Below, piece by piece: positions 17,899 to 35,523 of a stretch of 64,000 bases of DNA. Position numbers and translations under genes: made by a program. Position 1 is the stretch's first letter; every line of letters begins with the position of its first letter. Under the pieces are notes generated by a model. The model searched no databases, was not told where the DNA came from, and saw nothing but the letters and a program-made list of their open reading frames with translations. The stretch covers positions 15,955-79,954 of the forward strand of contig JAHHIK010000024.1 of NCBI GenBank assembly GCA_019358935.1, read 5' to 3'. This stretch comes from Tolypothrix carrinoi HA7290-LM1 (GTDB lineage Bacteria > Cyanobacteriota > Cyanobacteriia > Cyanobacteriales > Nostocaceae).

Positions 17899-18945
17899 AT
17901 GGCTAAAACTAAGAAATCAGAAAACGTTCCCAATGCGATGCAAGAAAAGTTCGATGGCATTGTGGCTTCTTCGGATGATTTTGCAAAACTTCATTTGAAC
18001 TCGGAATATGCCCAGTTGATTCGTTTTGCAACAGCAGCTCTGTGTCGGAAGAGACCATCTCCCCTGGCAAGCGGTAAGGAGAAAACTTGGGCTTGTGGCA
18101 TTACCCATGCTATTGGTATGGTCAATTTTCTCTTTGACCCTTCACAAAAACCCCATGTTAGTGCCAAAGAAATCTACAATTGGTTTGGTGTAAGTCCCAG
18201 CACCGGGCAGTCAAAATCAAAACAGGTACGAGATATCCTGGATATGCGGCAGATGGACCCTGATTGGTGTCTGCCGAGTAAGTTAGACAACAACCCGATG
18301 GCTTGGATGATTTCTGTGGATGGATTTATCCTGGATGCCAGGTCTGTTCGCCGAGAAATACAGGAAGAAGCATACGCACGGGGTTTGATTCCTTATATTC
18401 CGGCTGATGGGAAACCGGAAGATATTGATGAGAAACAAGCATCATCCCAACAAAGCAAACCAGTTAACTTTTCTCCCGATGCCCTGTATGTGCTAGATGT
18501 TTTTATAATTGACGGTCCAATCGCAGAGAAATTTATCGCCAAAAATCCAGTGATATCCCGAACCATTGAGATTAAAGGCAGCAATACCCTGGAAGACCTC
18601 CATAAAATTATCTTCAAAGCATTTGATCGCCAAGAAGAGCATATGTACGAATTTCAAGTGGGAGGTTGTGGACCACAAGACCCAAATGCTAGAAGGTATG
18701 GCTTGAAACAAGCATTTTCTTTTTTCCATTTTGCAGAAGCGCCTACAGGCGATGTGTCTAGCACCCCAATTGCTTCTCTGGATTTATCTATTGATGATGC
18801 TTTTGGTTACTGGTTCGATTTTGGTGATGATTGGTGGCATCAGATTAATGTAACCAACATCGCAGACAAGACTCCAGAGAGCAAGTATCCCAGAATCACT
18901 CTTGTGGTTGGGGCTAGCCCTCCTCAATACGCGGATTTTGAGTAA
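17899..18945 (+). CDS. DUF6398-like domain fused to a plasmid pRiA4b ORF-3-like domain
   Basis: N-terminal WACGITHAIGMVNFLFD; C-terminal RTIEIKGSNTLEDLHKII..HMYEF..YWFDFGDDWWHQI. Confidence 0.75.
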   Translation: MAKTKKSENVPNAMQEKFDGIVASSDDFAKLHLNSEYAQLIRFATAALCRKRPSPLASGKEKTWACGITHAIGMVNFLFDPSQKPHVSAKEIYNWFGVSPSTGQSKSKQVRDILDMRQMDPDWCLPSKLDNNPMAWMISVDGFILDARSVRREIQEEAYARGLIPYIPADGKPEDIDEKQASSQQSKPVNFSPDALYVLDVFIIDGPIAEKFIAKNPVISRTIEIKGSNTLEDLHKIIFKAFDRQEEHMYEFQVGGCGPQDPNARRYGLKQAFSFFHFAEAPTGDVSSTPIASLDLSIDDAFGYWFDFGDDWWHQINVTNIADKTPESKYPRITLVVGASPPQYADFE

Positions 18946-19005
18946 CAAAAACGGGCGTTACTGATTCATAGGATGATTTCGGCTCATTGTCGGTTCGCGG
19001 ACATA

Positions 19006-19163
19006 TGTCACTGTAAGGATAAGTTGAGCAACTCTGAAGGCATAAGTTGAGCAATAGATTCCTTGAAACCCGATTAAACTCTTGTATAGCGTAAAAGTAG
19101 AAATAGAAGTTTTGAAAGCATAAGTTGAGCAAATGTTATATTTAGAAACTATAAGTTGAGCAA
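19006..19163 (+). repeat. tnsAB-proximal end with four TnsB-binding repeats
   Basis: ATAAGTTGAGCAA at 19019, 19042, 19120 and 19151. Confidence 0.9.
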
Positions 19164-19258
19164 ACATTTTCAATATGAGCGCTCATAAATACATAACGTT
19201 GTGCTGTGATAAACAGTAGGAGGAACTCGGACTTAGACCCAGGATTAAAGAAAGCATT

Positions 19259-22006
19259 ATGCTCTCGAGCCAAGAGTTTAATAACTGGTGTCATACTCAA
19301 CACCTCAGTCCAGCAGCGCAAGCAGTAATCTCAGAGATTCGCAGCACCAACCCATCTCGTCGAGTAACAGGGGGTAGGAAAAATGTTTGTGGCTCTTACC
19401 CCAGTAGAAAAATGGGAGTAACAATCCAATTCGAGAGCCACCGTAACGAATTAGCACGTATTTACGAACTAGAAAACGACCCCGAAGTACTCGAATATTA
19501 CGACCAACCAAAGCCCATCGAGCTAGTTTACTCTTCAAAAAGTGGGCGTAAAAATAGACATCAATATACACCCGACTTCTTTATTATTCGGACCGATTGC
19601 GCTCTTTGGTGCGAATGCAAAACAGAACAAGAACTAAACAAATTAACTAACATTAGTCCAAATCGATATTGCTTCCAGTCAGATGACAAATGGCATTGTC
19701 CCCCAGGAGAAAACTATGCTCGTCTTTATGGTTTCGACTTCCAAGTATGGTCAGATGCTCAAATTAACTGGAACTTTCAACAAAACTTAATTTGGCTAGA
19801 AGATTACTTCGGTTACTCGTCAGGAATCATAAAAGAAACTGAAAAGTTTTTGATTGTAGACATTGTTAAAAATCATCCAGGGATAAGCCTTGCAAAGCTT
19901 TTAACAAATAAAGATATCAATCCCGATAGCGTTTATTGGTTAATTGCTTTTAATGAAGTTTACGTAGAACTTAATAAAGTAAAACTCTCGCAAGCTGAGA
20001 CAGTACTCATATTTATTAACCAAGATGTTGCTTTATCTTATGAGTATCTAAACAAGAGTGAATCACATCAAAAAACCAGTAATCAAACAGGATTGCAAAT
20101 AGCTGTGGGTACTTGTATTTCCTGGGATGGAGAATCTTGGGAGATAGTAAATACAGGAACTGCAACTACTGGATTATTACGTGCAGATGGCAAGCTTATA
20201 GAGCTACCAAATACAGCATTTACAACGTTAATTGATAATTGTAAAATAGCTGGAGTCGGTACAACAGAAAGCGAAAATATTAAAGCAGCATCAACCGGAA
20301 TTCTACAACAGGCAACTTGTCTTGACATTATAGAAGCCAACCGTCGCTACAGTTTAATACAACCATACTTAGTGGATAATCCTCCAATATACCCAAGCAG
20401 TACAATCCGTCGTTGGCGCAGTCAGTACCAAAAAGCTTTATACATCTACGGAAATGGATATATAGGATTACTGCCTAATCACAATAGTAAAGGCAACCGT
20501 ACAGCAAAAATTGATGATAAAACCAAAGAATTTATGCTCGAATTTATACTAAAGCATTATGAAACACCCAAACAACGAAGAAAATTACGGGTTTATGAGT
20601 CATTTGTTTTAGCTTGTCAAAACCACGAACCGCCATTAAAACCTCCATCCCGAATTACATTTTGCGCTTATATCAAAACTAGAAGCGGACATCATCAAAC
20701 TAGAAAGCGTCTTGGTAATCGGGCAGCTATTCCAGAAGAGCCATTTTACTGGGAATTAGAGCAAACTACGGAAAGACATGGCAGTCGTCCCTTTGAGATT
20801 GTCCACATTGACCATACTCAACTTGATATTGAATTAGTCAGTTCCCTCGAATCTCTAACTAGTTGTCATATTGCCACAAACAAGGATTTTCATCAAAATT
20901 TAGGTCGTCCTTGGGCAACCTTTATGGTTGATGCATATAGCCGGAAAATTTTAGCCGTTTACCTCACTTTTGATGAGCCAAGTTATCGAACTTGTATGAT
21001 GGTAATCCGCATAGTAGTGCAGCGATTTGGTCGATTTCCTCAAAATATAGTTGTAGATAACGGTGCAGAGTTTCACAGTCACTATTTTGAACAATTATTA
21101 GCATATTACACTTGCACTCTCAAATATCGACCACCAGCACATGCCAGGTTTGGTTCAATTGTTGAAAGATTATTTGGGACAGCCAATACGCAGTTTATTC
21201 ATGAGTTACAAGGTAATACCCAAATTAAACGTCTTAACCGCCAAGTTACCTTATCAGTTAGTCCAGAACGATTAGCAATTTGGACATTAGAAGAACTATA
21301 TTTAGCTATATGCGAATGGGCATATTCAGTTTATGACCAAAGATTGCATCCCACATTAGGTAAAAGCCCTCGCGATGCTTTTGTCTACGGACTTACCATT
21401 GGCGGAAGTCGTTTACATCGACGAGTCGAATATGACGAATTATTTAACATCTTAACTCTACCTGCACCCGATGGGGGACAACGGAAAGTTCAACCCGGAA
21501 AAGGGGTAAAAATCCATAATATTTATTACTGGGCAGACATATTCCGCGACCCAGAAATTGAGAAATCAATGGTCTGGGTTCGGTATGACCCTTGGGATGC
21601 AGGAGTTGCCTATGCTTTAGCAGGAAAACAATGGGTAAAATGCATTTCTTCTTACTATCAATATTTCCAAGGACGTTCAGAAAAAGAAATTCGACTCATT
21701 AGCGCAGAACTTAATCAGCACAAACGTAATTATGAGAGAAACCGGACAATAACGGATAAAGAATTAGTGAATTTTTTAAATTATCAACAAGCATCTGAAG
21801 GGCTTTTTCTTAAACAACGCTTGCATGATGCCGAACATTACAAAATTCACAAAATTATTCAAAATCGTTCTGACGAACCACAGAAACTATATCCTACTTC
21901 TTCGGAAAAATCAAATGATATTGAGTTACAAGAATCTAATGAGACTGAGACAAATTGCCATTTCAACTCCGACACAGAAACCTTTGAATATTATGGAGAG
22001 TTTTAA
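19259..22006 (+). CDS. tnsAB: Fused TnsA endonuclease-TnsB DDE transposase
   Basis: N-terminal TnsA motifs (QFESHRNE, YYDQP, YTPDF, CECK); DDE core HIDHT, VVDNGAEF, VERLFG; Mu-like C-terminus (VRYDPWD). Confidence 0.92.
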   Translation: MLSSQEFNNWCHTQHLSPAAQAVISEIRSTNPSRRVTGGRKNVCGSYPSRKMGVTIQFESHRNELARIYELENDPEVLEYYDQPKPIELVYSSKSGRKNRHQYTPDFFIIRTDCALWCECKTEQELNKLTNISPNRYCFQSDDKWHCPPGENYARLYGFDFQVWSDAQINWNFQQNLIWLEDYFGYSSGIIKETEKFLIVDIVKNHPGISLAKLLTNKDINPDSVYWLIAFNEVYVELNKVKLSQAETVLIFINQDVALSYEYLNKSESHQKTSNQTGLQIAVGTCISWDGESWEIVNTGTATTGLLRADGKLIELPNTAFTTLIDNCKIAGVGTTESENIKAASTGILQQATCLDIIEANRRYSLIQPYLVDNPPIYPSSTIRRWRSQYQKALYIYGNGYIGLLPNHNSKGNRTAKIDDKTKEFMLEFILKHYETPKQRRKLRVYESFVLACQNHEPPLKPPSRITFCAYIKTRSGHHQTRKRLGNRAAIPEEPFYWELEQTTERHGSRPFEIVHIDHTQLDIELVSSLESLTSCHIATNKDFHQNLGRPWATFMVDAYSRKILAVYLTFDEPSYRTCMMVIRIVVQRFGRFPQNIVVDNGAEFHSHYFEQLLAYYTCTLKYRPPAHARFGSIVERLFGTANTQFIHELQGNTQIKRLNRQVTLSVSPERLAIWTLEELYLAICEWAYSVYDQRLHPTLGKSPRDAFVYGLTIGGSRLHRRVEYDELFNILTLPAPDGGQRKVQPGKGVKIHNIYYWADIFRDPEIEKSMVWVRYDPWDAGVAYALAGKQWVKCISSYYQYFQGRSEKEIRLISAELNQHKRNYERNRTITDKELVNFLNYQQASEGLFLKQRLHDAEHYKIHKIIQNRSDEPQKLYPTSSEKSNDIELQESNETETNCHFNSDTETFEYYGEF

Positions 22007-23115
22007 TGTCAACCGAAAAAAGCTTTCCTCGTGATTTACTCCAGCGACCCCAACACGATAGAGTTGCTTATTTCCAGCAATATACAATGGCACATCCGAA
22101 ATTACTACTAGCTTTTGAGAAACTAACACATGCAATTGATGACCCGGCTTCTGTTGCTTTAATCTTTTTATTTGGTCCAACTGGTGTTGGTAAAACAACT
22201 TTACTGCGTCGCATGACGACTAAGTTGCTAACTTCAAATATTGAAAAAATGGAACAGGATAAAGGCTTTATTCCTATTGCTGGGATTGAAGCTGCTACCC
22301 CTGAATTTAGTAACTTTAATTGGAAGGATTTTTACTTACGTGCTTTAACTGTTCTCCAAGACCCATGCCTGGAATTACCAGGTTACGGTCAAGTTACTAA
22401 TTCAAAGTTGAAAACTTCGCTGGAAACTGCACTTAAATATCGTCAACTTCAAGTTTTTTGCATTGATGAAACACAAAATCTAAGTAAAGTTGCCAGCGGA
22501 CGTAAATTACGCGACCAAACTGATTGTATCAAATCGCTGGCTAACTTGACGGCTGTTAAGTTTGTACTGGCGGGTACTTATGATTTATTAATACTCCGAA
22601 ATTTGAGTGCCCAACTGTGCCGACGTAGCCTGGATATCCATCTGGAACGCTACAAAGCCGAAAATCCGGAGGATTTAAAAGCTTTCAGAGGTATTGTCCA
22701 AACCTTTCAACGCCATTTACCTCTTGAAGTTGAGCCGGATTTACTTAAACACTGGGATTTTTGCTACGAGCGCAGTTTTGGTTGTGTGGGTATTCTAAAA
22801 GATTGGCTATGCCGTGCGTTTTTTTGTGCATCTTCTCAAGGAGCTAAAACTCTGACTATTAAACACTTGCAGTTGTCTGCTTACTCTACTGAACAATGCA
22901 TGATTATAGTCACTGAAACTAAACATGGAGAAAAGCAGCTTGAGTTAATAGAGGATAGTTCTGCTTTAAGAATTGCTTTAAGCTTAGAACATAATAATGA
23001 TGCTTATGCTTCAGCTACTCATATTGCTACAGCTCCAAAAAAATCCCGTCGTGACAAAGTAGGCGATACTAAACCTCAGCGTCGTCCAGTTGGAGGAGGT
23101 CAAAATGCCAGTTGA
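22006..23115 (+). CDS. tnsC: TnsC AAA+ ATPase
   Basis: GPTGVGKT, CIDETQ, AQLCRR; coupled to tnsAB by a TAATG overlap. Confidence 0.92.
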   Translation: MSTEKSFPRDLLQRPQHDRVAYFQQYTMAHPKLLLAFEKLTHAIDDPASVALIFLFGPTGVGKTTLLRRMTTKLLTSNIEKMEQDKGFIPIAGIEAATPEFSNFNWKDFYLRALTVLQDPCLELPGYGQVTNSKLKTSLETALKYRQLQVFCIDETQNLSKVASGRKLRDQTDCIKSLANLTAVKFVLAGTYDLLILRNLSAQLCRRSLDIHLERYKAENPEDLKAFRGIVQTFQRHLPLEVEPDLLKHWDFCYERSFGCVGILKDWLCRAFFCASSQGAKTLTIKHLQLSAYSTEQCMIIVTETKHGEKQLELIEDSSALRIALSLEHNNDAYASATHIATAPKKSRRDKVGDTKPQRRPVGGGQNAS

Positions 23116-23995
23116 ATATTTGACTAACTATGAGTCTTGGGATTTTGACACAAATGAACTTCCTCTTCGTAGTCCTCTTTACTCTCTTCTTCCTATCGGT
23201 ATTGGTACACCCGCAGTTGAAAGTTTTACCAGTTACCTGACTCGCTTGGCGGCGGCTCATGGTGTTTCTGTTACTACTTTGATTCGCTATAAAATTGCAC
23301 CATTATTTATCGAGAGCAGTATTGCAACAGATTTACTATCCGCCTATATTATCAGAATACTTATGGATGCTTCGCCCAAAAAGCCTACAACGCTCTTGAT
23401 TCAAACTGCTGGATTTTGGTTAGACCTAACTCAAAATGCTTCTAAGCTCGTCTGTGCTGTTAAAACATTGACTGGTAGGCAGGATATTCATTATACGTCG
23501 CTACTGTCAATGCAAGGGTGGCGGCTAAAGTTTAACAATATTTTTCATTTCTCACAACGCTGGTGTCCTAGCTGCTATTCTGACTGGCGCCACGGCGGAA
23601 AGCCTATCTATCAACCTTTGTTATGGGCTTTGGAACCTGTAACTGTTTGCCCCCATCACCAACGTTACCTACAGTTGCGATGCTTTGATTGCAATGGTTT
23701 ACAGCCATTTCTCGTTTTGGACAAAATTCAAGTTGGTTGTTGTTGTATATGTGGTGCATGGCTAGGACAAATTTTAGAGTCGGAGGCTAATTTCAAGTTG
23801 CCCGACCTTGTTTGGGACTTGTGGTTTGCTCAAGTTCTGGGAAAACTCCTGGCTGCGACACCAGAACTTGTTACAAATCCGACTAGAAAGGAAACTCGGT
23901 TTAGAGAGCGCCCAATATTTCATAGTCTAAATTGGTTTTTAAGGCAGTGTTATCAGATAGGAATCAATCCTGTTGAATATTTGAGTAATTTTTAA
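23105..23995 (+). CDS. tniQ: TniQ-family protein (short, 296 aa)
   Basis: ESFTSYLTRLAAAH, WCPSCY, CPHH, CFDC, CCICG zinc motifs; no long TnsD-type C-terminal region. Confidence 0.9.
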   Translation: MPVEYLTNYESWDFDTNELPLRSPLYSLLPIGIGTPAVESFTSYLTRLAAAHGVSVTTLIRYKIAPLFIESSIATDLLSAYIIRILMDASPKKPTTLLIQTAGFWLDLTQNASKLVCAVKTLTGRQDIHYTSLLSMQGWRLKFNNIFHFSQRWCPSCYSDWRHGGKPIYQPLLWALEPVTVCPHHQRYLQLRCFDCNGLQPFLVLDKIQVGCCCICGAWLGQILESEANFKLPDLVWDLWFAQVLGKLLAATPELVTNPTRKETRFRERPIFHSLNWFLRQCYQIGINPVEYLSNF

Positions 23996-24081
23996 ATGAA
24001 ACTTGGGTGTATTTGAGTTCAACTCGCTTCGGCCTGAAGTCAGGGCGCAACATCCGTAGCGCTATACTTTTCTCCTCCTTC

Positions 24082-24162
24082 TTTGTAAGTATAAGGCTAG
24101 TTTATTCAAGCAGAAAGCATAAAGTAAGCAACAAGCATCTCTTAAGATGCTTACAGTTAACA
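24082..24162. repeat. Degenerate (relic) transposon end inside the element
   Basis: TTTGTAAGTATAAG..GAAAGCATAAAGTAAGCAA..CTTACAGTTAACA aligns with the live distal end TTTGTAAGCATAAG..GAAAGCATAAAGTGAGCAA..CTTACAGTGACA (24978-25053). Confidence 0.75.
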
Positions 24163-24206
24163 AATGGTTAAAAGTATCAGTAAGCTATGCCCCGAACGCC
24201 CTAAAA

Positions 24207-24240
24207 TATCTATACGAGTGTATCTCCATCAGTGTAGATA
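24207..24240. promoter_or_regulatory. Palindromic operator overlapping the cargo gene start
   Basis: TATCTATAC-N16-GTGTAGATA, ending on the A of the ATG. Confidence 0.65.
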
Positions 24241-24827
24241 TGGTGAAAATAGAGCGCGAGTCTATCAACTTCAAATTGCCAAAATCGTTATGTGACGGAC
24301 TCAGAGCCGCTGCGGAACAACGCAACACTACCGCCACTGATTTGGTAATTCAAGGGTTGCACCATATTTTGGGGGATGTACCTGGTGTGGAGGCTAGTGT
24401 CGAAGTTCGTTTAGACCAACTTGAAGAAGAATTTTGGCTTCTCAAACAAAACATTAATCTAACCTGCACCAACCCCGATCAAGAAAGTAGGTTAACTGCA
24501 TTGGAGAATAAACTCGAAGCTATGAGTACTCGACTCGCTCAGTTTGAAGGGGCGATAACGCAACTCCAATATAGCGTCAATTCATCAAAATCCCGCAAAT
24601 CGGGACACCCCTATCAATTTAGTTCCCAACCGCCACAACTCCAACCCCTTGATGAGAATAAACTAGCTTTCAGACTTAATACTACTGTAGCAACATTAAC
24701 TGAAAAACGTACAACCCTCAGTCCCAAAGAGTTTGAATCTTGGACAAGAGACAAAGACAGTATTAGACGTGGATGGCAGTTCAACGATAAAGATGGTCTG
24801 TACCATGAAGTAAGCGCTTTCTTTTAG
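24240..24827 (+). CDS. Transposon cargo: RHH/CopG-like DNA-binding protein with coiled coil; paralog of 25130-25705
   Basis: MVKIERESINFKLPKSLCDGLRAAAEQRNTTATDLVIQGLHHILG (strand-helix-helix pattern); start placed by alignment with the paralog. Confidence 0.8.
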   Translation: MVKIERESINFKLPKSLCDGLRAAAEQRNTTATDLVIQGLHHILGDVPGVEASVEVRLDQLEEEFWLLKQNINLTCTNPDQESRLTALENKLEAMSTRLAQFEGAITQLQYSVNSSKSRKSGHPYQFSSQPPQLQPLDENKLAFRLNTTVATLTEKRTTLSPKEFESWTRDKDSIRRGWQFNDKDGLYHEVSAFF

Positions 24828-24977
24828 GAGTGAATGAGAATTGCTGGTGGTGACATACCCTCTCTGTTGCACCCAACATCTATTACATTACCCGAAGCGC
24901 TTCAGCAACACTGTAAAAAATGCATCCAATACCGAGCGAGTTCAAGAATTATCTATTGAGCGATTGGAAGCATTAGG

Positions 24978-25053
24978 TTTGTAAGCATAAGTTGAGCAAG
25001 TCTCTTTGAAAGCATAAAGTGAGCAACTTGCTCAACTTATCCTTACAGTGACA
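24978..25053. repeat. Distal transposon end with TnsB-binding repeats
   Basis: ATAAGTTGAGCAA at 24987, ATAAAGTGAGCAA at 25014, inverted TTGCTCAACTTAT at 25028, terminal ACA at 25053. Confidence 0.9.
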
Positions 25054-25096
25054 ACATATTTTGAACTAAATATTAATACTCATCCTCGTTGTAAAC

Positions 25097-25130
25097 TATC
25101 TACACGAGCGTATATAACTGGGTGTAGATA
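25097..25130. promoter_or_regulatory. Palindromic operator of the plasmid RHH gene; candidate Tn7-like attachment determinant
   Basis: TATCTACAC-N16-GTGTAGATA, a perfect 9-bp inverted repeat ending on the A of the ATG. Confidence 0.7.
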
Positions 25131-25705
25131 TGGTACGAATCGAACGGGAATCCATCAACTTCAAACTCCCCAAACCCTTAGCTGACGCACTTCGAGCCAA
25201 AGCTGCCGAGCTAGACACCACCGCTACCAATTTAGTCATCGAGGGGCTGCATCACATCCTGGGAGAGATTCCGGGTATAGAAGATAGTGTAGAAAATCGT
25301 CTACAACAACTCGAAGCTCAATTAAACCACCTCGCTAATAGTACAGATAAGCGTGTAGACACTGATGTAGACAACAGACTTAGTTTGTTAGAGCAGAAAC
25401 TAGAAGCACAAGCATTACAGTTGGCAAAAATTGAAGGAGTTATAACAACCCTTAGTCAACAGCGTTCGCATACAGGTGGTGGCTACAGAAGGCAAGCTTT
25501 TAATTATCATCCCCCACAACTAGAACTTCAGCCTTACACGGGGGAAAATTTAGCTAAAAGATTGGGAGTTGATATCGCAACCCTAACAAGAGAGCGAGAA
25601 AACAACACCCAGGCTGAGTTTGAATCGTGGTGTCGTCGCAAAGACCCAAGTCCGGTGGGGTGGCGTTTTAACTCAAATTCGGGACTTTATCATCCCGTAA
25701 AGTAA
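25130..25705 (+). CDS. Plasmid RHH/CopG-like DNA-binding protein with coiled coil
   Basis: MVRIERESINFKLPKPLADALRAKAAELDTTATNLVIEGLHHILG; C-terminal LAKRLGV..W.RRKDP..GW.F motif shared with the cargo copy. Confidence 0.8.
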   Translation: MVRIERESINFKLPKPLADALRAKAAELDTTATNLVIEGLHHILGEIPGIEDSVENRLQQLEAQLNHLANSTDKRVDTDVDNRLSLLEQKLEAQALQLAKIEGVITTLSQQRSHTGGGYRRQAFNYHPPQLELQPYTGENLAKRLGVDIATLTRERENNTQAEFESWCRRKDPSPVGWRFNSNSGLYHPVK

Positions 25706-25868: not shown

Positions 25869-28800
25869 CTACGCTAATTCCATCTCTTTCCTTTTGCCTG
25901 ATCCCCTGGAATTTGCTTCTAAGACAGGAGATTGTAGTTGGGCTGATTTTGATGTCAGAATAATCATCTCTTGCAATTGCAGTGCCCCTGCATCTGAGAG
26001 GAGTAGGACTTCTTCTCCGGTATGAATATTGCCTTTGCAGATAGTTCGCTTGGATTCCGAACGCACAAAGAAATCACCATTGGGTTGCACGTAAGCAGTC
26101 CAACTGTTGCCAATTTTGAACTGTTTAGTTTCAGTATTATCAGGCTCTCTTTCTTGCCTGCGTTTGTACGTATTACTGACGGCTTCAAAGAGCAAATCTT
26201 GCATTTCTTTGCGCCAGTCTGAGCTAATGTTAGTCTGCGTGGTACTGTCTGTCTGGGTTTCGCTTTGGGCGTCTGGCAAGCGAATAGAATTAGGGTCAAT
26301 ATTGAGTACAACGGTAGCACCCAACGGTGACAATGAAGCTTGGAATGTAGTGCCGATAGGTAGTTTAGGGGTATCAGGGGCGAAGGTTCCCAGATTTTTA
26401 CCATCAATTTGAATAATGGGGATGCCATTGTAGCGGTAGAATTCTGGGTGCGATTCAGTCAGCTCAAAAGTGCCGACTTCTAGAGTGACTTTCTGCTTTT
26501 TCCATTTTTTATTAGCAAAGTCTTCATTCTTCAAGTCGTTGTATTTTATGCCTAGCACTTTGATTTCATCAAATTGAAACTGTTGTAGTTGATCTACAAT
26601 TTCCTCCATGAATAAGTGGTAGGCGATCGCTCCTTTTCCCGGTTCAGTTCTCGATTCCACCCAGGCGCAATCAGCAGGTGGGACAATCATTACATTGTCC
26701 GGCATTTGAAGAGTGTCAATGTCGTTGTAGTTGTTGCCGTATTTAGCTTCTAGCTTTTCGATTTGTAATGGTGACAAGCTTTTTAAGGCAAACTCAACTA
26801 GCGGTAATCCTGGGTGAACTGTTGCCTCATATTCGATGCTTTTTTGGTCGAGGGATTCTTTCCATTCTTGAACTTTCTTTCCAAATGGAACTTGCAGGAC
26901 ATAGATATCTCGCGGGAGTGCCTCATGGAGTAACTCGTAGTCTGGTTCAAGGGAAAATGTCATTTTGAGCGTTTTGGCAATCTTTAGACATTCCTCTTTG
27001 TGGCTATCGATGTCAAGTTTGGTATGTTGCGTATGCCAAGTAGCAGCAGCGGCGCGAAAACGTTCTTCTTTTGTGGGGAATAACTCATCGATTTCGGCAC
27101 GGTAGCTATCGTAGAGTTTCCCTAACTCTTCATTGAAAACGTCTTTGTCGTCTCCAATTCGTTGGGCGATCGCCGCAATATCTTGTTTAGATCGTTTTTT
27201 GAGTTCTTCAGCCCATTCGAGTTCATCTACGCCGAATGTCTCTTTCGGAAACAGATACCGAAATTCGTGGCGTTCTCGGTGTCGAATACGTGTCGCTTCC
27301 CAGTGGGGATTTACCGCTTCTCTTGGGATTACATTAATCGGGTTCGGTTCCTCAGCAGGCATAGGAAAAGTTTTGTAAAGTCGGTTGTCTTTTTTGAAGT
27401 CGAAGAAGTAACTTGGATGAGCTTCCGACCATTTTTTCGAGTCTGGTAGCAAGTTTTCCCCGTCGATTTCCTTGATATCCTCCAACCGTTCTGCACTTTT
27501 TTGGTAATCAACTTCAGGCTGTAATGCTATGAACAGGCGATTTAGCAATCTTGTTTTCTTGCGCTCAAACAGTCGGGGGTTTTCATCTTCATTCGGGACT
27601 GATGATTGGACTCTTCCAATTGTTGTGGCGACTAAACCAATTTTATTCTGGGAACTGGCTGCGGCTATGCTTGACAAAGTTCTATATTTTTGCTTACCCT
27701 GAGCATCTTTGACTGCGGTGTAGGGAACTTTAGGGCGTTGTTTAACTTCAGCATAGCGCCTGGGTTCTCCGGCGCGTAGAGTTTCAGCAGCAATCTGGGG
27801 TAGCATTTTAGATGGAGCAACTACCATTTGGTCGCCGTCAAAGTCAGCTTGGTGGTATTCTTCAGCGTCTTTTGGCTGCATGAAGACAACACCTTTGTAT
27901 TTCATTAGTTCTAGTTTGTGAACATTTGTATAACGTCTGATGTTATCGCTGGAGACAATTGGAAAGCGAGTGGTGATAATATCGCCTTCGCTTAGGTGAG
28001 GTACGCAGATTGTTCCTCTTTCCAAGTCTGTACATGGCATAGCCATCCCAGAACTAAATTTGAAAGCTCCCTTGATTGCCAAGTCACACCAGCGATTGGC
28101 AACGTATTGTCGCATAGCATCAGCAACAAAGGGGCTGTCGATCAAAAGACCAAATTTATCGTTGCGTAGCAGAGTAACGAGCCGTAATTCTTGTTGTTCT
28201 TGATTTTTGTCAGTATTTTCACGTTCTAATGAGTCATCAACTGAGAGTGCAGCATATTCCCTGGCACGCTGTTGTTTCTTGTCGTACTCTTCAACAATGT
28301 GTTTAGCTAAAGCGAGGGGGTTGCGTTGGAGCTTGGCTAGTTTTTCGGCTTCTTTTCGAGTTGGTTCTACGAAGTCTTTCTTGAGAGCCTCTTCGCTATA
28401 CCAAATGCTAAATTGCCAGCTGTTGTCATAGTCGATTACTTTAGCATTACCCCGGTTGCCCAAAGCACTTCTGGGTAACTCATATTCGCCGCAAGGGATT
28501 AAATCAAGTAAAAGAGTTTTCTTAATCCCTTTAATTGAGGAGCGATCCATAACAATATCAAACCCCTCTGCTTCTAAAGTGGCATTGGGTAGTAAAGTGC
28601 CTTTAGCCAAGAAACTAGTTAAGGATTGCTCCGGATTATCTGCCCAGTTTTCTAGCCAAGCAAAGCGAAATTGGAAGGGTCGGTTAGCTAAACCTCCCAT
28701 GAGTTTAACAAGGCTAGGTGATACTTGTCCATGACAGTCTCCGGTTTTATATTTTTCGGCTTCAGCTTTCTCTTTGGGGTCTTTGCTGTTATAGTCCACA

Positions 28801-29204
28801 ATTTTGATTCGTAGACCTTCAATTTGCTCTGCTCCCTTAAAGCAATTACTGACCAACAGAGAACCGTAGCGACAGGCAGTATCTTCTTCAGTTTGGAAGA
28901 TTTTGCCTATTTTGGCGCGTAGTTCATCATCTGCAAAGTAGTAGTTATTGCCAGAACTAAAGGTGAGTTGTCGTTTGACACCATCGAAGGTTTTGGGTTT
29001 TAGATGTTTAGGGTCAGGGTTTTTCGAGTTAATTTTGACCAGTACGAGAGATTCGAGTTCTTCTGGCTCAAACATGAGTTCCAGAAGAGAGTTTTTGATA
29101 ATTTCTGGTTCAGAAAGGAACCTTCCTTTACCGTTGTTATAAGAACCGTCGAAAACTTTAATTTTGAGACCGATGTTTTGAGCGACTTCTGTTGTTGGTA
29201 TCAT
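25869..29204 (-). CDS. Single-chain RdRP-like (double-psi beta-barrel) polymerase
   Basis: In order: TGDCHGQVS, PFQFR, AKGTL, TRFP and the catalytic loop QADFDGD. Confidence 0.75.
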   Translation of the reverse strand: MIPTTEVAQNIGLKIKVFDGSYNNGKGRFLSEPEIIKNSLLELMFEPEELESLVLVKINSKNPDPKHLKPKTFDGVKRQLTFSSGNNYYFADDELRAKIGKIFQTEEDTACRYGSLLVSNCFKGAEQIEGLRIKIVDYNSKDPKEKAEAEKYKTGDCHGQVSPSLVKLMGGLANRPFQFRFAWLENWADNPEQSLTSFLAKGTLLPNATLEAEGFDIVMDRSSIKGIKKTLLLDLIPCGEYELPRSALGNRGNAKVIDYDNSWQFSIWYSEEALKKDFVEPTRKEAEKLAKLQRNPLALAKHIVEEYDKKQQRAREYAALSVDDSLERENTDKNQEQQELRLVTLLRNDKFGLLIDSPFVADAMRQYVANRWCDLAIKGAFKFSSGMAMPCTDLERGTICVPHLSEGDIITTRFPIVSSDNIRRYTNVHKLELMKYKGVVFMQPKDAEEYHQADFDGDQMVVAPSKMLPQIAAETLRAGEPRRYAEVKQRPKVPYTAVKDAQGKQKYRTLSSIAAASSQNKIGLVATTIGRVQSSVPNEDENPRLFERKKTRLLNRLFIALQPEVDYQKSAERLEDIKEIDGENLLPDSKKWSEAHPSYFFDFKKDNRLYKTFPMPAEEPNPINVIPREAVNPHWEATRIRHRERHEFRYLFPKETFGVDELEWAEELKKRSKQDIAAIAQRIGDDKDVFNEELGKLYDSYRAEIDELFPTKEERFRAAAATWHTQHTKLDIDSHKEECLKIAKTLKMTFSLEPDYELLHEALPRDIYVLQVPFGKKVQEWKESLDQKSIEYEATVHPGLPLVEFALKSLSPLQIEKLEAKYGNNYNDIDTLQMPDNVMIVPPADCAWVESRTEPGKGAIAYHLFMEEIVDQLQQFQFDEIKVLGIKYNDLKNEDFANKKWKKQKVTLEVGTFELTESHPEFYRYNGIPIIQIDGKNLGTFAPDTPKLPIGTTFQASLSPLGATVVLNIDPNSIRLPDAQSETQTDSTTQTNISSDWRKEMQDLLFEAVSNTYKRRQEREPDNTETKQFKIGNSWTAYVQPNGDFFVRSESKRTICKGNIHTGEEVLLLSDAGALQLQEMIILTSKSAQLQSPVLEANSRGSGKRKEMELA

Positions 29205-29662: not shown

Positions 29663-30589
29663 ATGACTAACGAGTTTGATATTATCGTCGTACCCGGCGA
29701 TGCCGCCGAAGCTACTGAGGCGATGGGAACCAAATTCAAATTCTGGTTTTACCACCCGGAACTAGGCTATTGTCTTTATAAGCAAGCTCGACCTAATACA
29801 GGTGAAGACTGGGCAGAAAAGATAGCGGCTTCGTTGTGTGAGTTACTCAAAGTGCCCCATGCCCGTATTGAACTGGCTACCTGGAACAACGGTCGTGGTA
29901 CGGTGTCACCATCATTTCTATCTAATGGTTCCTCACTCATTCTTGGTAATGAGATTCTTGCTCCAATGGTGCCGGAGTATCCCCGATTCCAAGCTTTTAA
30001 TGTGTCGCAACACACCCTTGATGTTGTGCTGGCAGCCATTAGTAATAATGCAGTCAATCTGCCTTTGAACTGGATACCACCAGCAGGTATCCAGACAGCA
30101 GTAGATACTTTTGTTGGCTACTTACTGTTGGATGCTTGGATTGGTAACAGCGACAGGCATCACGAAAATTGGGGGTTTATAGAAACATCTTTAGATGCCT
30201 CTACACAGAAGAGAATGTTTCATCTTGCACCCACCTACGACCACGCTTCCAGCCTAGGTCGGGAAATGCTGGACAGCAAGCGACTGGAGCGACTTCTCAA
30301 TCGCTCTGTCTCAGCCTATGTAGACAAATGCAGATCGGCGCTATATGCTCAAATTGGGGATAAAAAAGCCTTGAGACCTCTGGATGCGTTTTGTGAAGCA
30401 GCGCAACAGGCAACTAATGCAGCTTCAGTGTGGTTGGAGTGCTTAAGTTGTGTGTCCTCCACAGAAACGCTGGCACTATTTAACCGCGTGCCATCGAACC
30501 GGATTTCAGAAACGGCGATCGCTTTTGCTCAGGATATACTGGAAATAAATCAACGCCGACTGCTTGAACTGCGGGAGGAACTACTGTGA
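29663..30589 (+). CDS. HipA-family kinase
   Basis: MGTKFKFW, LYKQ, GEDWAEKIA, WIGNSDRHHENWG, LAPTYDHASSL. Confidence 0.88.
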   Translation: MTNEFDIIVVPGDAAEATEAMGTKFKFWFYHPELGYCLYKQARPNTGEDWAEKIAASLCELLKVPHARIELATWNNGRGTVSPSFLSNGSSLILGNEILAPMVPEYPRFQAFNVSQHTLDVVLAAISNNAVNLPLNWIPPAGIQTAVDTFVGYLLLDAWIGNSDRHHENWGFIETSLDASTQKRMFHLAPTYDHASSLGREMLDSKRLERLLNRSVSAYVDKCRSALYAQIGDKKALRPLDAFCEAAQQATNAASVWLECLSCVSSTETLALFNRVPSNRISETAIAFAQDILEINQRRLLELREELL

Positions 30590-31341
30590 AAATGCTCTTT
30601 CTAGCTTGGCAAGACCCAGTTAGTCGCGCTTGGTTTCCCATTGGTCGCTTATCTAGTGATGGAACCACCTATCAATTTGTTTATACTCAAGGAGTCCAAG
30701 TGGCGCAGCAACAGTGCGCCTTTCAGCCATTGCCGTCTTTCCCAGACTTAGACTTGGTGTACTTTTCGCCAGAATTGTTTCCATTATTCGCTAACCGCCT
30801 TCTACGTCGAAGCAGACCGGACTACGCTGATTTCGTACAGTGGTTAAACCTCTCCACCCACGAAGATGACCCAATCGCTTTGCTTGCTCGCAGTGGGGGA
30901 CAACGGGCTACCGATACGTTTTTTGTCTTGCCTGCAAGTGAGCAGGATGGGAATGGAGTTTACCACATTCACTTTTTTGTTCACGGTCTACGCTATCTGC
31001 CTTATGAAACTATTAATCGGATTAGCCACTTACAGACGGGCGAACTGTTGCGTCTTGTTCGCGACACATATTCTGATGAAGAACGTGGTTTGATTTTGTG
31101 TACTGAAGACCGTTACATTGTGGGCTACAGTCCTCAATATCTTTTAGATGATAGCTTTGAGATGCTGCGCTCTTTACTAAACTGCGTGCAAGTTGCCGTT
31201 GAGCGCGTCAATCCACCCCCCACACCCCTCCAGTTTCGGTTGCTTTGTCACCTGAGTGCCTGTTTGCCAGAAAACTTTCGTCCTTTCTCCAGTTCGATTT
31301 ACCAACCACTGGTTGATATGGTAGCGGCTAGCCCGGTTTAG
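30586..31341 (+). CDS. HipA-N/HipS-like plus HIRAN-domain protein (putative antitoxin)
   Basis: LFLAWQD..WFPIGRL..LFPLFANR..RPDY N-domain, then FFVHGLRY..LRLVRD..IVGY HIRAN-like domain; GTGA overlap with the kinase gene. Confidence 0.8.
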   Translation: MKMLFLAWQDPVSRAWFPIGRLSSDGTTYQFVYTQGVQVAQQQCAFQPLPSFPDLDLVYFSPELFPLFANRLLRRSRPDYADFVQWLNLSTHEDDPIALLARSGGQRATDTFFVLPASEQDGNGVYHIHFFVHGLRYLPYETINRISHLQTGELLRLVRDTYSDEERGLILCTEDRYIVGYSPQYLLDDSFEMLRSLLNCVQVAVERVNPPPTPLQFRLLCHLSACLPENFRPFSSSIYQPLVDMVAASPV

Positions 31342-31352
31342 GAAAGGTCAAC

Positions 31353-32189
31353 TCACAGTGTTTGAATCGCTTTGAAGACGGACTCTTGGGTGAGGTAGAG
31401 CGATCGCATACTGGCACTTGCCGAATCGAAGTAAGTGGCGAAGCGTTTTAATTCCCCCGTTGTTAGTTGAATTAAATAATCAGTGGCAACTGCTGCTACT
31501 TGTTGGTTGATGCTCAAGCTTTGAGTATTGAGTAGCGCCATTTGTTCGCATGATAAATTGTTGTCCTGCAATTCCTCTGGTAGTGGAACCAAAAGTTCTG
31601 GATGTTGGATTGTTGGCGAGGGGATTTGGCTACAGCCAAGGGGTCCAAAGGTATAATCTTGCGGGGCATTAGATAGATTTGAACCTAATAAAACCTGTCC
31701 GCTACTTTTACTATTCCCACAGTCTAAATACCAGATTGAAGGAGCCTGATTAGAATTGTAATCGTTATGTTTCAGCACTTGTGAAAGTGACTCTCGCGCC
31801 GAAGCATTATCCACGCACCCAATAATAATTGACAGTGTTTTGTACCCTGCTTGTACCATTTTTGGGTGAAAGCGTTTGGTTATTGCTTTAATTTCCATCC
31901 CCCAGGCAATTGAATATCTTAGAGCTAATGTTTGGGCTTTGAGCAAGCCGATTTCTTTATAGCAGAAGCACTGCCTTAGTACATTAGCTTCTTCGACAAC
32001 ATCATGATCTACGAAAGTGACTTGCACCTCTTTACCCGTATTGCTTAAGCTACAAGCAAGTCGAACAACACTCGCAGCAAGCCAACTCCCAGTCCCTCCC
32101 ATTCCAACGACCCAAAATTCAATGCGGGAGTGTTGTAAAAGAATTAGCTTTGATGCGTTAACAAAATCATAGTAATGGTTCATGTTCAT
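31353..32189 (-). CDS. ThiF/E1-like adenylyltransferase (PRTRC-like)
   Basis: VVGMGGTGS, VDHDVVEEANVLRQ, GCVDN..AR, LDCGN, LSCEQ; start moved to MNMNH. Confidence 0.88.
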   Translation of the reverse strand: MNMNHYYDFVNASKLILLQHSRIEFWVVGMGGTGSWLAASVVRLACSLSNTGKEVQVTFVDHDVVEEANVLRQCFCYKEIGLLKAQTLALRYSIAWGMEIKAITKRFHPKMVQAGYKTLSIIIGCVDNASARESLSQVLKHNDYNSNQAPSIWYLDCGNSKSSGQVLLGSNLSNAPQDYTFGPLGCSQIPSPTIQHPELLVPLPEELQDNNLSCEQMALLNTQSLSINQQVAAVATDYLIQLTTGELKRFATYFDSASASMRSLYLTQESVFKAIQTL

Positions 32190-32886
32190 CCAAAGAATTA
32201 TCCAGAATTGGAGAATTAGTATTCGAGTAAAATTTGTAGGCAATTGCTGAGTCACAAGAGATGTCGTGCATAAACTCAGGTAGTTCAAAGACGTTGCTTG
32301 CAGGGATATCCCAGTAGTTTCTGAAAATTCCCACTCTGACTCGGATTTCAGGTTCTTTGGTGTTGACTCGCCCCAAAACAGCATAGATGCGGAACCCTCC
32401 TTCGTCAGCATCATCGGTTGTTGAGAAGAAGGCTTTCATTGCATGATGAGAATGCACGTCCACAGTAGCGTTGTGGAACGAAGAATCGCCGTCAAATCTG
32501 GTTGGTTGACAGCTTGCGCTATGTTGAGTTTGGTCTGGTATTTCCAAGCGCCAATTGTTCTGTTCATAGTGAATGTGAAAAGCAATTTCTACTGCACCTT
32601 GAGCGTTACAAGCGAGGCAACTGCGTCGCCACATTTCTAGCAATATTGTTTTAGGAATCTTATTTGGTTTGAGTTGCAAATAAGGTTCAATAATTGGCAA
32701 TCCTCGGATATTTTCTCTGTAGTATTCCACGGGCATCAATACTTCTAATCCTGGGCGGATGCCTCTAATGAATACTCCATTCCCAGCAAAAAGATATTCA
32801 AACAGAGAACTGGTATGAGATGGTAAAGGGAGTTGACGGACAATTTTGTAGTCAACTATTTCCTCAAAATTAACTAGCTGAATCAT
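32167..32886 (-). CDS. JAB/MPN metalloprotease (PRTRC protein A-like)
   Basis: AVEIAF plus DVHSHHAMKAFFSTTDDADE JAMM motif. Confidence 0.88.
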   Translation of the reverse strand: MIQLVNFEEIVDYKIVRQLPLPSHTSSLFEYLFAGNGVFIRGIRPGLEVLMPVEYYRENIRGLPIIEPYLQLKPNKIPKTILLEMWRRSCLACNAQGAVEIAFHIHYEQNNWRLEIPDQTQHSASCQPTRFDGDSSFHNATVDVHSHHAMKAFFSTTDDADEGGFRIYAVLGRVNTKEPEIRVRVGIFRNYWDIPASNVFELPEFMHDISCDSAIAYKFYSNTNSPILDNSLDEHEPLL

Positions 32887-33580
32887 CGGCAATTTCTGAA
32901 AATAAAGTTGCAATGGTAGCCTTTTTATCTAAAGGCACAAGGTCTTTGAGCGGGTAAGTGCAGTTTTTCTGCTGATGCAAAGCTAAAAGTTGATCGCGGA
33001 CATCATTTGTATGGTGCTTCGATTTGCCATTACTTAAATGGGAATTAAACGGACTAGAAATGAAAAGATTCCAAGCTTGATTAATGGATTGGGCAGAAGC
33101 AGATGGGGGTTGATTTTTACCCCAGCAAACTTTTCCCCACGGCGTGTACACATTTGGCAGTGGGGCATGGAAAAGGCTGGCATCAGGGTCGAATATCTTA
33201 ATTTTGGTTGCCCATAACCAGTAGGTAAAATTTTTGCCGACAAATATCATTGCAGGCATTGGAATTTGAACTTGCCCTAGTTCGTCACAGTCAAGTAGTG
33301 TTCTTTGTGGCGGGACGAATTTAACTACCCATTCCCCAGAGTTGCTAGTACAAGTGCGAACTACACCTTCACCTATCCAACCAGAGTCGATAGGTTCATT
33401 GCTAAAGGCGATGCGTAGTGCCGTTGGTGAGAGACATTTGTAGTGTGATTTTTCTCCAGATTGGTAATGCAGGATGTAAGTGCCATCAAGGATTAGTAGC
33501 TCGGCTTTGATTGCAGATAAGCTTCTGGGAGGGTCTTGTAAAAGCTCCCTGATTATTTCAGCAGTGATGATGTGTTCCAT
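32870..33580 (-). CDS. Prokaryotic E2 family D protein (PRTRC protein B-like)
   Basis: LFHAPLPNVY..GKVCWG..FISSPFNSHL. Confidence 0.82.
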   Translation of the reverse strand: MEHIITAEIIRELLQDPPRSLSAIKAELLILDGTYILHYQSGEKSHYKCLSPTALRIAFSNEPIDSGWIGEGVVRTCTSNSGEWVVKFVPPQRTLLDCDELGQVQIPMPAMIFVGKNFTYWLWATKIKIFDPDASLFHAPLPNVYTPWGKVCWGKNQPPSASAQSINQAWNLFISSPFNSHLSNGKSKHHTNDVRDQLLALHQQKNCTYPLKDLVPLDKKATIATLFSEIADDSAS

Positions 33581-34353
33581 ATTCCCAAAACTAGTTCAAA
33601 GTGGTTTATAAGGTCTTGCTCCAGCCATTCGATAAGGTGATAAACTTGGTCGAGGATTACCTTGGCATTTTGCCATTCCCTCTGTAAAAATTTGATGTTT
33701 TCAATTGTCCAAAGTAATGAAACTTCTGGTTCATTTGTTGCACAATAATCCAGCCAAATGTTATTGCTTTCATAGTCAAGAAGTTGCAATGCCAAGGGTA
33801 AGAATTTTAAAGGTTTGGCAGCACGACAGGATAGTTTTTTTAACAATTGAGCGTTAATATCTTTGGGGTGTGCGATCGCCTGCCATGACACCCCAAACTC
33901 GCACTCATACCAATCAGTGCCTTCCGCTGACTCAAGCCAGTAATATCCTTCTGTGCTTAAAGGAAGAAGAATTTGCCATCCAGACCGCAATGATTCAATG
34001 TCCTCGTGTCCGATCCAATCGCAGCCCATTGGCATAAGTGGAATTTGGTAGAAGCGTTCTTCATAGGCGTTTTCTATTTGTAACTCTGAGATGGGAAATA
34101 GGTTTTGGCTGACTAGATATAAAAACTCGATTTCAAGGGAACTGTGACTGTCAGGGTTATTTAGGTCTTTGGGGTAGGGTGCAGCTGTACTGTTCTTAAA
34201 TTCATCTGGGAATAAGTGTTGATATAACGCCAGCAGTCGGTAGCTATTGAAACGGTTTTCTAAATAGTCAACCGCTTGGTTAGTGTCAAGAATTCTTTGG
34301 CACTGTCGCAAGCGGTGAATCGCTGATAACGCATTTAAAAGAGAAGGTAACAT
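33553..34353 (-). CDS. Conserved cassette protein (PRTRC protein F-like position)
   Basis: Overlaps its neighbours in the operon; LQLLDYESNNIWLD motif. Confidence 0.6.
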   Translation of the reverse strand: MLPSLLNALSAIHRLRQCQRILDTNQAVDYLENRFNSYRLLALYQHLFPDEFKNSTAAPYPKDLNNPDSHSSLEIEFLYLVSQNLFPISELQIENAYEERFYQIPLMPMGCDWIGHEDIESLRSGWQILLPLSTEGYYWLESAEGTDWYECEFGVSWQAIAHPKDINAQLLKKLSCRAAKPLKFLPLALQLLDYESNNIWLDYCATNEPEVSLLWTIENIKFLQREWQNAKVILDQVYHLIEWLEQDLINHFELVLGIWNTSSLLK

Positions 34354-34355
34354 TG

Positions 34356-34778
34356 CTAGAACCCTTCTGGAATTGCGCCTGGTGATGGTAGAATTTTCTC
34401 TAGCAAGCGCAATGTTTTCCGAATTACATTAGAGTATTCGGTTCCCTGTTTAATGGCTTCTTCAATTTCATTGGAGAGGGCGTTCATACTTTCGTAATCA
34501 AGTTCTCCTATCAATTCCATATGCTGAACTTTTCGGCACATGCTTATTGCTGGATTAACTTCTTCAGGTGAGGTGATTAAAACCTCTAGAGGTGACGCAC
34601 CTTTTGGACCCGCTCGTTTTATAATTTTGATAATTTCTCCGGGCTTCCTCTCAATCACAGAATTTGCCATGTCGGGATAAAAAGGTGTAAAAAGGTCGCG
34701 TAGTAATTGGTCGTTGGCAGCAATGTTTTCATCTACAGGATGTTGTTGTCCCTCAAAAGACACTATTACTTTAACCAT
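34356..34778 (-). CDS. Ubiquitin-like protein (PRTRC protein C-like) with C-terminal extension
   Basis: About 60-aa domain (LRDLFTPFYPDMANS..IIKRAGPKG) followed by about 80 further aa. Confidence 0.65.
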   Translation of the reverse strand: MVKVIVSFEGQQHPVDENIAANDQLLRDLFTPFYPDMANSVIERKPGEIIKIIKRAGPKGASPLEVLITSPEEVNPAISMCRKVQHMELIGELDYESMNALSNEIEEAIKQGTEYSNVIRKTLRLLEKILPSPGAIPEGF

Positions 34779-34806
34779 AGTAGAATTATTGTGTTTAAAT
34801 GTTGAA

Positions 34807-35523
34807 CTAGACCCCAAACAGCGTTAGCTGTGTATTTTTGCTGGTAGGGTTTTCTTCTTTGGTTTTGATAGGGAGAGAAGCAGCGGGTTGTTTATTTTTG
34901 GTTTTCTTAAGAGCCGCGTAGGAAATAGCCCGTCGCACTTGTCGGTTGGGAAAATCTGCTACTAATTCGTTAAGAAGGTCAGTGATAGCAGGTGGTAATT
35001 CGCCCATTTCATAAAGTCGCAGCATTTTATTAACAGGAAAGTCGCCGTGGCTACTGGCTGCCAGCATCACCTTTCTACCTTCGGGAGAGTTGTCATCAGG
35101 TAGAAAGGTAATGGTTAGCTTTACTGTGCATTTTTCAAAGATGTACGGTTCTAATTGTTCTTCTTTTGAGTTTGTTTCAGACTCGAAGTTTTTGGATTCT
35201 GAGTCGTCATCATTCAATTCGTCCACTTCGTCATTTAATAAAGCTGCATCTGGCGCGTCAACTATTGGTTTTTGTTCATCTGGCTGTGAATCATCTGAAG
35301 AGTTGTCGTTAAGTTCATCATTTTTGGACGCTGGTTGGAGAAGTGCCAAGTAATCAGACGCACCTGAAGACCAGCGATCGCGCTCAAAAAGAAGTCCTAA
35401 TTCTTGGAACCGTTCTTCTGTTGTTTTATGCTTTTGAGAACGATTGGGGTAAGTTTTGAGAGTAGCAGGGCTAATTGAAAGTTGAAGCAGTGAAACAGCT
35501 TGTTCTGGAGTTAGCCAGTTCAT
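34807..35523 (-). CDS. Cassette-associated acidic protein (PRTRC protein E-like position)
   Basis: First gene of the cassette; acidic linker; ends in QLTLFGV, a beta-clamp-motif-like tail. Confidence 0.55.
   Translation of the reverse strand: MNWLTPEQAVSLLQLSISPATLKTYPNRSQKHKTTEERFQELGLLFERDRWSSGASDYLALLQPASKNDELNDNSSDDSQPDEQKPIVDAPDAALLNDEVDELNDDDSESKNFESETNSKEEQLEPYIFEKCTVKLTITFLPDDNSPEGRKVMLAASSHGDFPVNKMLRLYEMGELPPAITDLLNELVADFPNRQVRRAISYAALKKTKNKQPAASLPIKTKEENPTSKNTQLTLFGV

Follow-up and report, generated by a model that had tools for sequence, protein, structure and literature searches.

How does a Tn7-like transposon that has a single short TniQ, and neither TnsD nor Cas proteins, choose the site of its insertion? 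The question is raised by an element of 6,048 bp at positions 19006-25053 of a 64-kb stretch of DNA from the cyanobacterium Tolypothrix carrinoi HA7290-LM1 (the window), the only cargo of which is a gene for a protein of the ribbon-helix-helix (RHH) type and the left end of which lies beside a plasmid gene of the same family. The target selectors known for Tn7-like elements comprise TnsD, TnsE, TnsF and Cas effectors; in the case of Tn5053, a resolvase present on the target serves this purpose. An initial annotation had proposed that the RHH-type protein, bound to its operator, recruits TniQ and TnsC and steers the element onto plasmids carrying this regulator locus without disrupting it. The comparisons presented here suggest, at the level of sequence, an undescribed form of target choice, in which recurrent landing about 44 bases from the site of a repressor-like protein is combined with a captured copy of the gene for this protein, whose own role is putative. 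On balance, we lean towards the view that an operator occupied by RHH protein serves as landmark and that TniQ loads TnsC next to it. In the literature searched, which lay mostly outside subscription journals, we found no account of transposons being targeted to RHH operators.

The element is intact and bounded by perfect 26-nt terminal inverted repeats, and the sequence ACATA is duplicated at both flanks; TGT...ACA ends, several TnsB sites and a 5-bp target-site duplication (TSD) are all present. Only four genes lie between the ends, among which neither a cas gene, a CRISPR array, a second tniQ nor a resolvase gene was found. The initial description of a complete element with TnsAB, TnsC and a 296-aa TniQ was thus confirmed, as were the paralogy of the single cargo gene to the plasmid gene outside the left end (50% identity, 98 of 196 positions), the motif TATCTAYAC-N16-GTGTAGATA across the start codon of both RHH genes, which was re-inspected, and the distance of 43 bp between the live left end and the operator of the plasmid gene. 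With a TnsA nuclease fused to a DDE-type TnsB, an AAA+ TnsC together with a member of the TniQ family, the element belongs to the cyanobacterial TnsAB-fusion clade of Tn7-like transposons and is a minimal member of the cut-and-paste kind. It occurs as a single copy in its genome (G000), and the window is plasmid-like, with a relaxase gene, two NikA/MobC genes and TrbI- and TraC-like matches.

Insertions of cargo-bearing relatives recur at the same locus. In G402 the element lies reversed inside another RHH allele, with its left end 44 bp from the operator and the TSD TTTGG, and in L050 it likewise lies inside the RHH gene, with its left end 49 bp from the operator; in both, the insertion is on the side of the operator opposite to that in the window. 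In these insertions the left end faces the operator on either side of it, which fits a symmetric protein-bound site. Of 19 runs holding part of the stretch, four (X2, X4, X14 and X15) were examined. Run X4 contains a full element; the 30 bp that flank its right end are RHH coding sequence, written with other codons, at the breakpoint seen in G402. In X15 a contig runs from the left end across 25054-25180, where the flank is of a diverged RHH type and differs at 18 of 258 letters. The right end in X14 is joined to a window-like flank; its left-end joint to 25428 covers only 30 letters and was not counted, and X2 yielded no flank of the element. Altogether, insertion at the RHH locus was found in six of the seven samples with a readable flank (G000, G402, L050, X4, X15 and G401, and not G403). 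No relatives of the element were found in viral contigs, and a phylum sample of 401 genomes contained no close TniQ other than that of the window. The idea that insertion always spares the regulator locus had to be abandoned, as five RHH-linked insertions (G402, L050, X4 and two copies in G401) lie within RHH genes and break them.

The cargo is a captured former target, in which operator and gene stand behind a decayed left end. Its start lies 244 bp beyond tniQ and is preceded by an operator of its own. Upstream of this operator a TnsB site at 24113-24132 is identical in 19 of 20 positions to the live left end, and the old terminus ends near 24162. Its terminal bases are mutated, with damage that differs among G401, G402, G403 and L050 (partly deleted in the latter), and it lies 44-45 bp before the operator of the cargo, which is the geometry of the live end. 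Every close relative whose DNA extends far enough has the cargo (four of four G401 contigs, G402, L050 and runs X4, X14 and X15), as do, by consecutive accession numbers, two further genomes; the region was not assembled in G403, a metagenome-assembled genome, or in L051. The ratios of nonsynonymous to synonymous substitution rates (dN/dS) were 0.09-0.36 for the cargo (six pairs), mostly about 0.3, and 0.21-0.40 for part of tnsC (three pairs). The cargo is under purifying selection, and the expectation that it accompanies the clade was borne out.

Both genes belong to a family that is common on Nostocales plasmids (106 records; 308 proteins). An operator-like array precedes nearly all of 35 distinct upstream regions of the family and is clearly absent in L187; position and conservation of the motif point to an operator, and a sigma-70 scan returned no promoter at these places. 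Because the strand ESINFKLPK is invariant or nearly so among 105 family sequences and the array is recurrent, the cargo and the plasmid protein should bind the same boxes. A distant RHH subfamily has a different strand and GATATC boxes instead. The AlphaFold2 model of the RHH-type protein begins with an extended segment followed by two helices at residues 15-44; in the cargo model the RHH-like N-terminus is followed by a coiled coil (52-115) and a small helical/hairpin C-terminal domain (133-192). The best Foldseek matches of the N-terminus were RHH proteins, namely PutA52 (probability 0.94, rmsd 1.4 over 39 columns) together with Arc, ORF56, CopA and ParG, with E values of at least 0.47 in all matches and none at or below 0.001. 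The first match in the ESM Atlas (0.97) was annotated as 'putative Arc-like DNA binding domain', and for the C-terminal domain no ESM Atlas match was obtained at 0.9 or above. Pfam CopG_antitoxin matched one of the 105 family members, and a wide structural search with the RHH model returned coiled coils only, likewise a PDB sequence search.

Family genes additionally contain intragenic TGTAGA boxes with a spacing of 12 bp (25281-25372 in the window). In the plasmid gene TGTAGA/TCTACA boxes lie inside the coding sequence at 25288, 25300, 25354 and 25366, and the box at nt 150-164 gave 25 hits among 34 family genes. The cargo has no internal TGTAGA boxes; they were lost by synonymous changes with the Val-Glu residues retained, which might avoid self-targeting.

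Sister elements from Nostocales share 78% identity in TnsAB and 75% in TnsC with the window clade, but only about 53% in TniQ (TniQ stem 0.45), a divergence as would be expected for a target switch. There is no RHH gene inside these sisters. In their left-end flanks ACAAAATAA-N7-TTATCTTTTATCC was found at 19-23 bp in 12 of 22 cases and an RHH operator in none; three duplicate loci had been dropped before this count, L005 and L045 share one flank, and the flanks of one subclade, for whose ends a pattern search gave no match, were read by eye. The sisters are cargo-less yet site-specific; therefore, site specificity without cargo is likely the ancestral state, and the window clade changed target, TniQ sequence and cargo together. 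P0008, the closest outgroup TniQ (73%), is located on six contigs of at most 5,208 bp, a length that a cargo-less element would have. Further ends of the sister clade follow a small Cys-rich gene in two species, at chromosomal positions that almost coincide (L029, L038 and L045); this may be a secondary site, and the flanks of L038 and L045 are swapped, which suggests inter-copy recombination or misassembly. Calothrix brevissima carries four sister-clade copies (L001, L006, L027 and L029) with longer left-end regions at unrelated sites, a multi-copy burst like that in G401.

The sister motif, situated upstream of an operon for a plasmid tyrosine recombinase, draws other Tn7-like families too. 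This site is struck from both sides by at least three short-TniQ families, often in tandem (L002-L005, L032-L035, L046, L049 and L216-L219), and would by analogy be a hot spot like those of res hunters. It also belongs to the grounds for an alternative, according to which the landmark is a larger resolution complex, with the RHH protein as accessory of a neighbouring tyrosine recombinase and the elements as res-site hunters that sense the recombinase complex. RHH genes are indeed convergent or divergent to tyrosine recombinase genes in L006, L212, L213, L214, L215 and contigs C69 and C78. We consider this improbable, given that the sole integrase match in the window is at 1591-2340, 23 kb away, that offsets centre on the operator from both sides, and that the captured gene encodes an RHH protein and not a recombinase.

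A second family of TnsA-TnsB-TnsC-TniQ type, here called E2, is unrelated to the window element (26% identity in TnsB, 25% in TnsC) and occurs at the same operators. Its end pattern was detected at 60 places in 43 of 389 genomes, and 30 loci were examined. Nine of these lie 40-44 bp upstream of an RHH operator, five with TCTACAC boxes and four with the GATATC boxes of the distant RHH subfamily; three are inside RHH genes, three about 60 bp from ACAAAATAA-N7-TTATCTTTTATCC, one within an array of operators that precedes a decayed gene, and 14 in none of these settings. More cases at RHH operators were found on host contig C9, in G498 and G685 and on two named plasmids; at the syntenic plasmid locus of G498 the place of the window element is taken by an E2 element with cargo, 42 bp in front of the RHH operator. 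The same offset beside two different operator sequences points to a protein-DNA complex as the cue, and since E2 carries no RHH cargo at these operators, carrying an RHH gene is not needed to reach the site.

On contig C9 of G000 a 324-bp miniature E2 element (95468-95791, TSD ATTAC) lies inside a broken RHH paralog, and another E2 end (95977) is situated about 41 bp upstream of the operator of this paralog. In L294 (G405) one palindrome upstream of a tyrosine recombinase gene is flanked by a full E2 element on one side and by a miniature E2 element on the other. At L236 and L237, where an RHH gene was not detected, E2 ends adjoin a stand-alone array in which GTGTAGAC-like boxes are spaced at 12 bp and which may be a centromere-like RHH site.

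The transposition proteins of the window element are closest to solved CRISPR-associated transposon (CAST) proteins. TnsAB contains the Pfam domains TnsA_N, rve and Mu_C, a PD..ECK nuclease motif at 105-121 and the DDE candidates D518, D600 and E636, and its closest solved relative is PDB 9BW1 (E 4e-265). TnsC has a Walker A motif at 57 and a Walker B motif at 153 and is closest to the TnsC of PDB 8FCU (E 5e-96). TniQ, with PF06527 over residues 30-189, has the TniQ of 8FCU (329 aa) and the TnsD of 8V32 (462 aa) as solved relatives; the latter aligned only up to its residue 250, plus a non-significant stretch at 273-314. We take these three PDB entries to be PmcCAST (type I-B2). The window TniQ consists of the TniQ core and a short C-terminal helical segment, and the full DNA-binding region of TnsD is missing. 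That it is a truncated TnsD pseudogene, the objection raised with the initial annotation, is ruled out by the short TniQ family of 288-311 aa, which forms one clade (support 100/100; tree of 26 rows, in which the row labelled L048_Cpar is a translation from L053), and by dN/dS values of 0.32-0.74, below 1 in all ten pairs. The AlphaFold2 model of TniQ from 16 sequences was poor (pLDDT 43), and a complex prediction of TniQ with two RHH proteins (score 0.01, mark 0.32), for which controls were not folded, is not used as evidence.

TniQ itself could read the operator DNA through its core and short C-terminal helices as a pared-down TnsD, in which case the cargo would only replace an often-broken gene. 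In every on-target flank TnTCTACAC or TnTATACAC occurs at 43-49 bp with one and the same polarity, a motif at a fixed offset is found for sister clades without cargo, and the five RHH-linked sites within the gene are likewise in line with such reading. Moreover, the last 40 TniQ residues show the non-significant resemblance to TnsD 273-314, and for shortened-TnsD elements that target CRISPR arrays, recognition of a motif at 40-50 bp from their left end has been proposed (PMC11837452). On the other hand, the DNA-binding region of TnsD is mostly missing from TniQ, single boxes occur frequently in the genome and yet the on-target sites have the whole array, and the unrelated E2 family sits at the same offset beside two operator sequences. 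Direct reading by TniQ therefore appears doubtful to us.

According to the occupied-operator reading, the preferred target would be the operator array of a widespread plasmid RHH/coiled-coil gene while it is occupied by RHH protein. The RHH protein would bind the boxes, the complex would, via contact with TniQ or via DNA bending, let TniQ load TnsC, and TnsC would set the offset at which TnsAB then inserts. That TniQ has no TnsD C-terminal region is counted as support. Because the RHH protein could be supplied by the target plasmid, the cargo may be a backup or replacement and not an obligatory selector; the captured copy would be kept in order to have operators stay occupied and/or to replace a gene broken by landing on its downstream side. 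Targeting would be leaky, with copies accumulating at unrelated sites as well.

Several observations weigh against this reading. Recurrence at a fixed offset, as initially predicted, was found at 43, 44 and 49 bp and, for the ancestral insertion, at 44-45 bp, a spread of 6 bp among the offsets from the operator, and did not hold throughout. Of the 12 ends in G401, two are located within an RHH gene at non-canonical places, one following codon 57 and one preceding about codon 93. The remaining ten represent 6-7 operator-less sites, three with matching TSDs, occupied by cargo-bearing copies, so that most copies in G401 are away from the RHH locus; in G403 neither of two ends, with unmatched TSDs, is near an operator. 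The sample is small, and G402 and X4 are perhaps not independent. Because the short-TniQ sisters are site-specific without cargo, DNA may be read by a short TniQ itself, or other host proteins may be used. For E2, no tns genes were found in 13 regions examined around copies at RHH operators, and the sole copy with tns genes that was found inside an RHH gene encodes a broken TniQ; intact proteins of its subgroup measure about 417 aa and may have a DNA-binding domain of their own. The two in-gene copies of G401 may each face internal boxes at about 44 bp across an unassembled interval, with which the box positions in related alleles are compatible.

The off-target copies in G401 and G403 also bear on the proposal that there is no dedicated targeting, the element inserting as widely as Tn5469, which is described as having one TniQ, no cargo and no specific attachment site (PMC9881144), with RHH loci over-represented by tolerance and the cargo a passenger. 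Against this stand the fixed offset and fixed left-end polarity at different alleles, a probability of about 6e-5 per site for an operator-like pair to start in a given 12-bp window (80 sites in G000), and the purifying selection on the cargo. Already largely refuted for on-target sites, this proposal is very improbable.

A stronger version of the occupied-operator reading is possible, although we would not expect it to hold: the RHH protein could be a true selector that contacts TniQ, in an early stage of domestication (captured with its attachment site, the old end inactivated), and the element one of a wider cyanobacterial guild of TniQ-only Tn7 elements hunting protein-occupied plasmid sites such as RHH operators and tyrosine-recombinase loci. 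The initial proposal of the cargo RHH as selector is upheld in that the cargo travels with the clade and is conserved; its necessity is weakened by the cargo-less site-specific sisters, by cargo-less E2 at the same operators and offset, and by the off-target copies in G401.

Comparison with known systems places the element beside several families and in none of them. Tn5053 uses a target-site resolvase (PMC7765201), and Tn5053/Tn402 share with the window element one short TniQ, a plasmid target marked by a target-encoded protein, fixed orientation, a 5-bp TSD and lower-level insertion elsewhere (PMC7765201, PMC11406308). Unlike in these elements, TnsA is fused to TnsB, res and TniR are missing, and the landmark is a repressor-like operator instead of a serine-resolvase site, with a copy of the landmark gene carried by the element. 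Tn6022 requires TniQ and TnsF (PMC11014353), the latter a tyrosine-recombinase-related protein of 481 aa that is encoded in an operon with tniQ and targets comM (PMC10293859, PMC11014353). The combination of a short TniQ with a separate element-encoded, here putative, DNA-binding protein, and without TnsD or Cas, is similar, but here the candidate partner, an RHH/coiled-coil protein of 195 aa, has an operator of its own, was captured from a target and has its own gene family as target, and the cargo has no integrase Pfam match. The terms 'ribbon', 'RHH' and 'CopG' were not found in the passages of PMC10293859 examined. Tn5469 resembles the element in its cyanobacterial TnsAB fusion, TnsC and single TniQ, and the multi-copy behaviour in G401 is similar (PMC9881144); cargo and a recurrent site set the element apart from Tn5469 as described there. 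Table S1 of the same paper contains G401-type tnsAB-tnsC without TniQ or target, plus one sister element. An archaeal TniQ with a separate helix-turn-helix gene is noted in bioRxiv 10.1101/2025.07.27.667033.

With PmcCAST (type I-B2) and type I-D CAST the element shares its closest solved TnsAB, TnsC and TniQ and a left end that faces the target, but it has no Cascade, array or TnsD, and with four genes between the ends it is not a CAST remnant. TnsD-type targeting of tRNA genes or glmS was rejected, TniQ having 296 aa as compared with more than about 450 aa for TnsD, and no tRNA gene was found in the 64-kb window. Minimal array-targeting elements have tnsAB-tnsC-tnsD/Q with a shortened selector, a motif 40-50 bp from the left end and a possible dependence on host factors (PMC11837452). 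They target CRISPR repeats and carry no cargo, whereas no CRISPR array adjoining the window element was found, and array targeting was rejected. In E. coli, such related elements did not work (PMC11837452).

Coordinates of the features are compiled in the table. Outside the right end, a DUF6398/pRiA4b-ORF3 gene (17899-18945) occupies the spot of the E2 cargo element on the syntenic G498 plasmid, a place of frequent turnover. Beyond the plasmid RHH gene and convergent with it, a 1,111-aa protein is encoded at 25869-29204, with a weak Pfam RdRP match (E 6e-4, below cutoff). Candidate defence modules follow at 29663-35523: a HipA-like gene together with a partner of 251 aa, and an operon of five genes in which ThiF (E1-like) and prokaryotic E2 domains occur.

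Table. Features of the Tn7-like element and its flanks in the window.
Feature	Position	Strand	Comparison
16-nt remnant of E2 end, overlapping TSD	18988..19003	+	full E2 ends
Target-site duplication ACATA, right-end copy	19001..19005	+	
Right (tnsAB-proximal) end: 26-bp terminal inverted repeat and four TnsB-site-like repeats	19006..19163	+	
tnsAB fusion, 915 aa	19259..22006	+	
tnsC, AAA+ ATPase, 369 aa	22006..23115	+	
Short tniQ, 296 aa	23105..23995	+	
Decayed inner left end	24113..24162 (approx.)	-	
Operator-like palindrome of cargo gene	24207..24240	+	
Cargo RHH-type gene, 195 aa	24240..24827	+	
Live left end: TnsB-site-like repeats and 26-bp terminal inverted repeat	24975..25053	-	
Target-site duplication ACATA, left-end copy	25054..25058	+	
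Operator-like palindrome of plasmid RHH gene; putative targeting landmark	25097..25130	+	
Plasmid RHH-type gene outside left end, 191 aa	25130..25705	+	

By analogy, the element would stand for a new form of Tn7-like targeting, closest in its working to res-site hunting and supplemented by a captured landmark gene. Were a repressor-operator complex the landmark, plasmids could be reached by one more route, and the site choice of cyanobacterial elements with a lone short TniQ, which have so far been read as untargeted, would be explained. The locus preserves a route to selector acquisition, the capture of a former attachment site, and offers a small system of four genes for the question of how TniQ is coupled to non-Cas partners. 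If the RHH protein does contact TniQ, a modular adaptor of 195 aa could be re-aimed by a swap of its DNA-binding domain.

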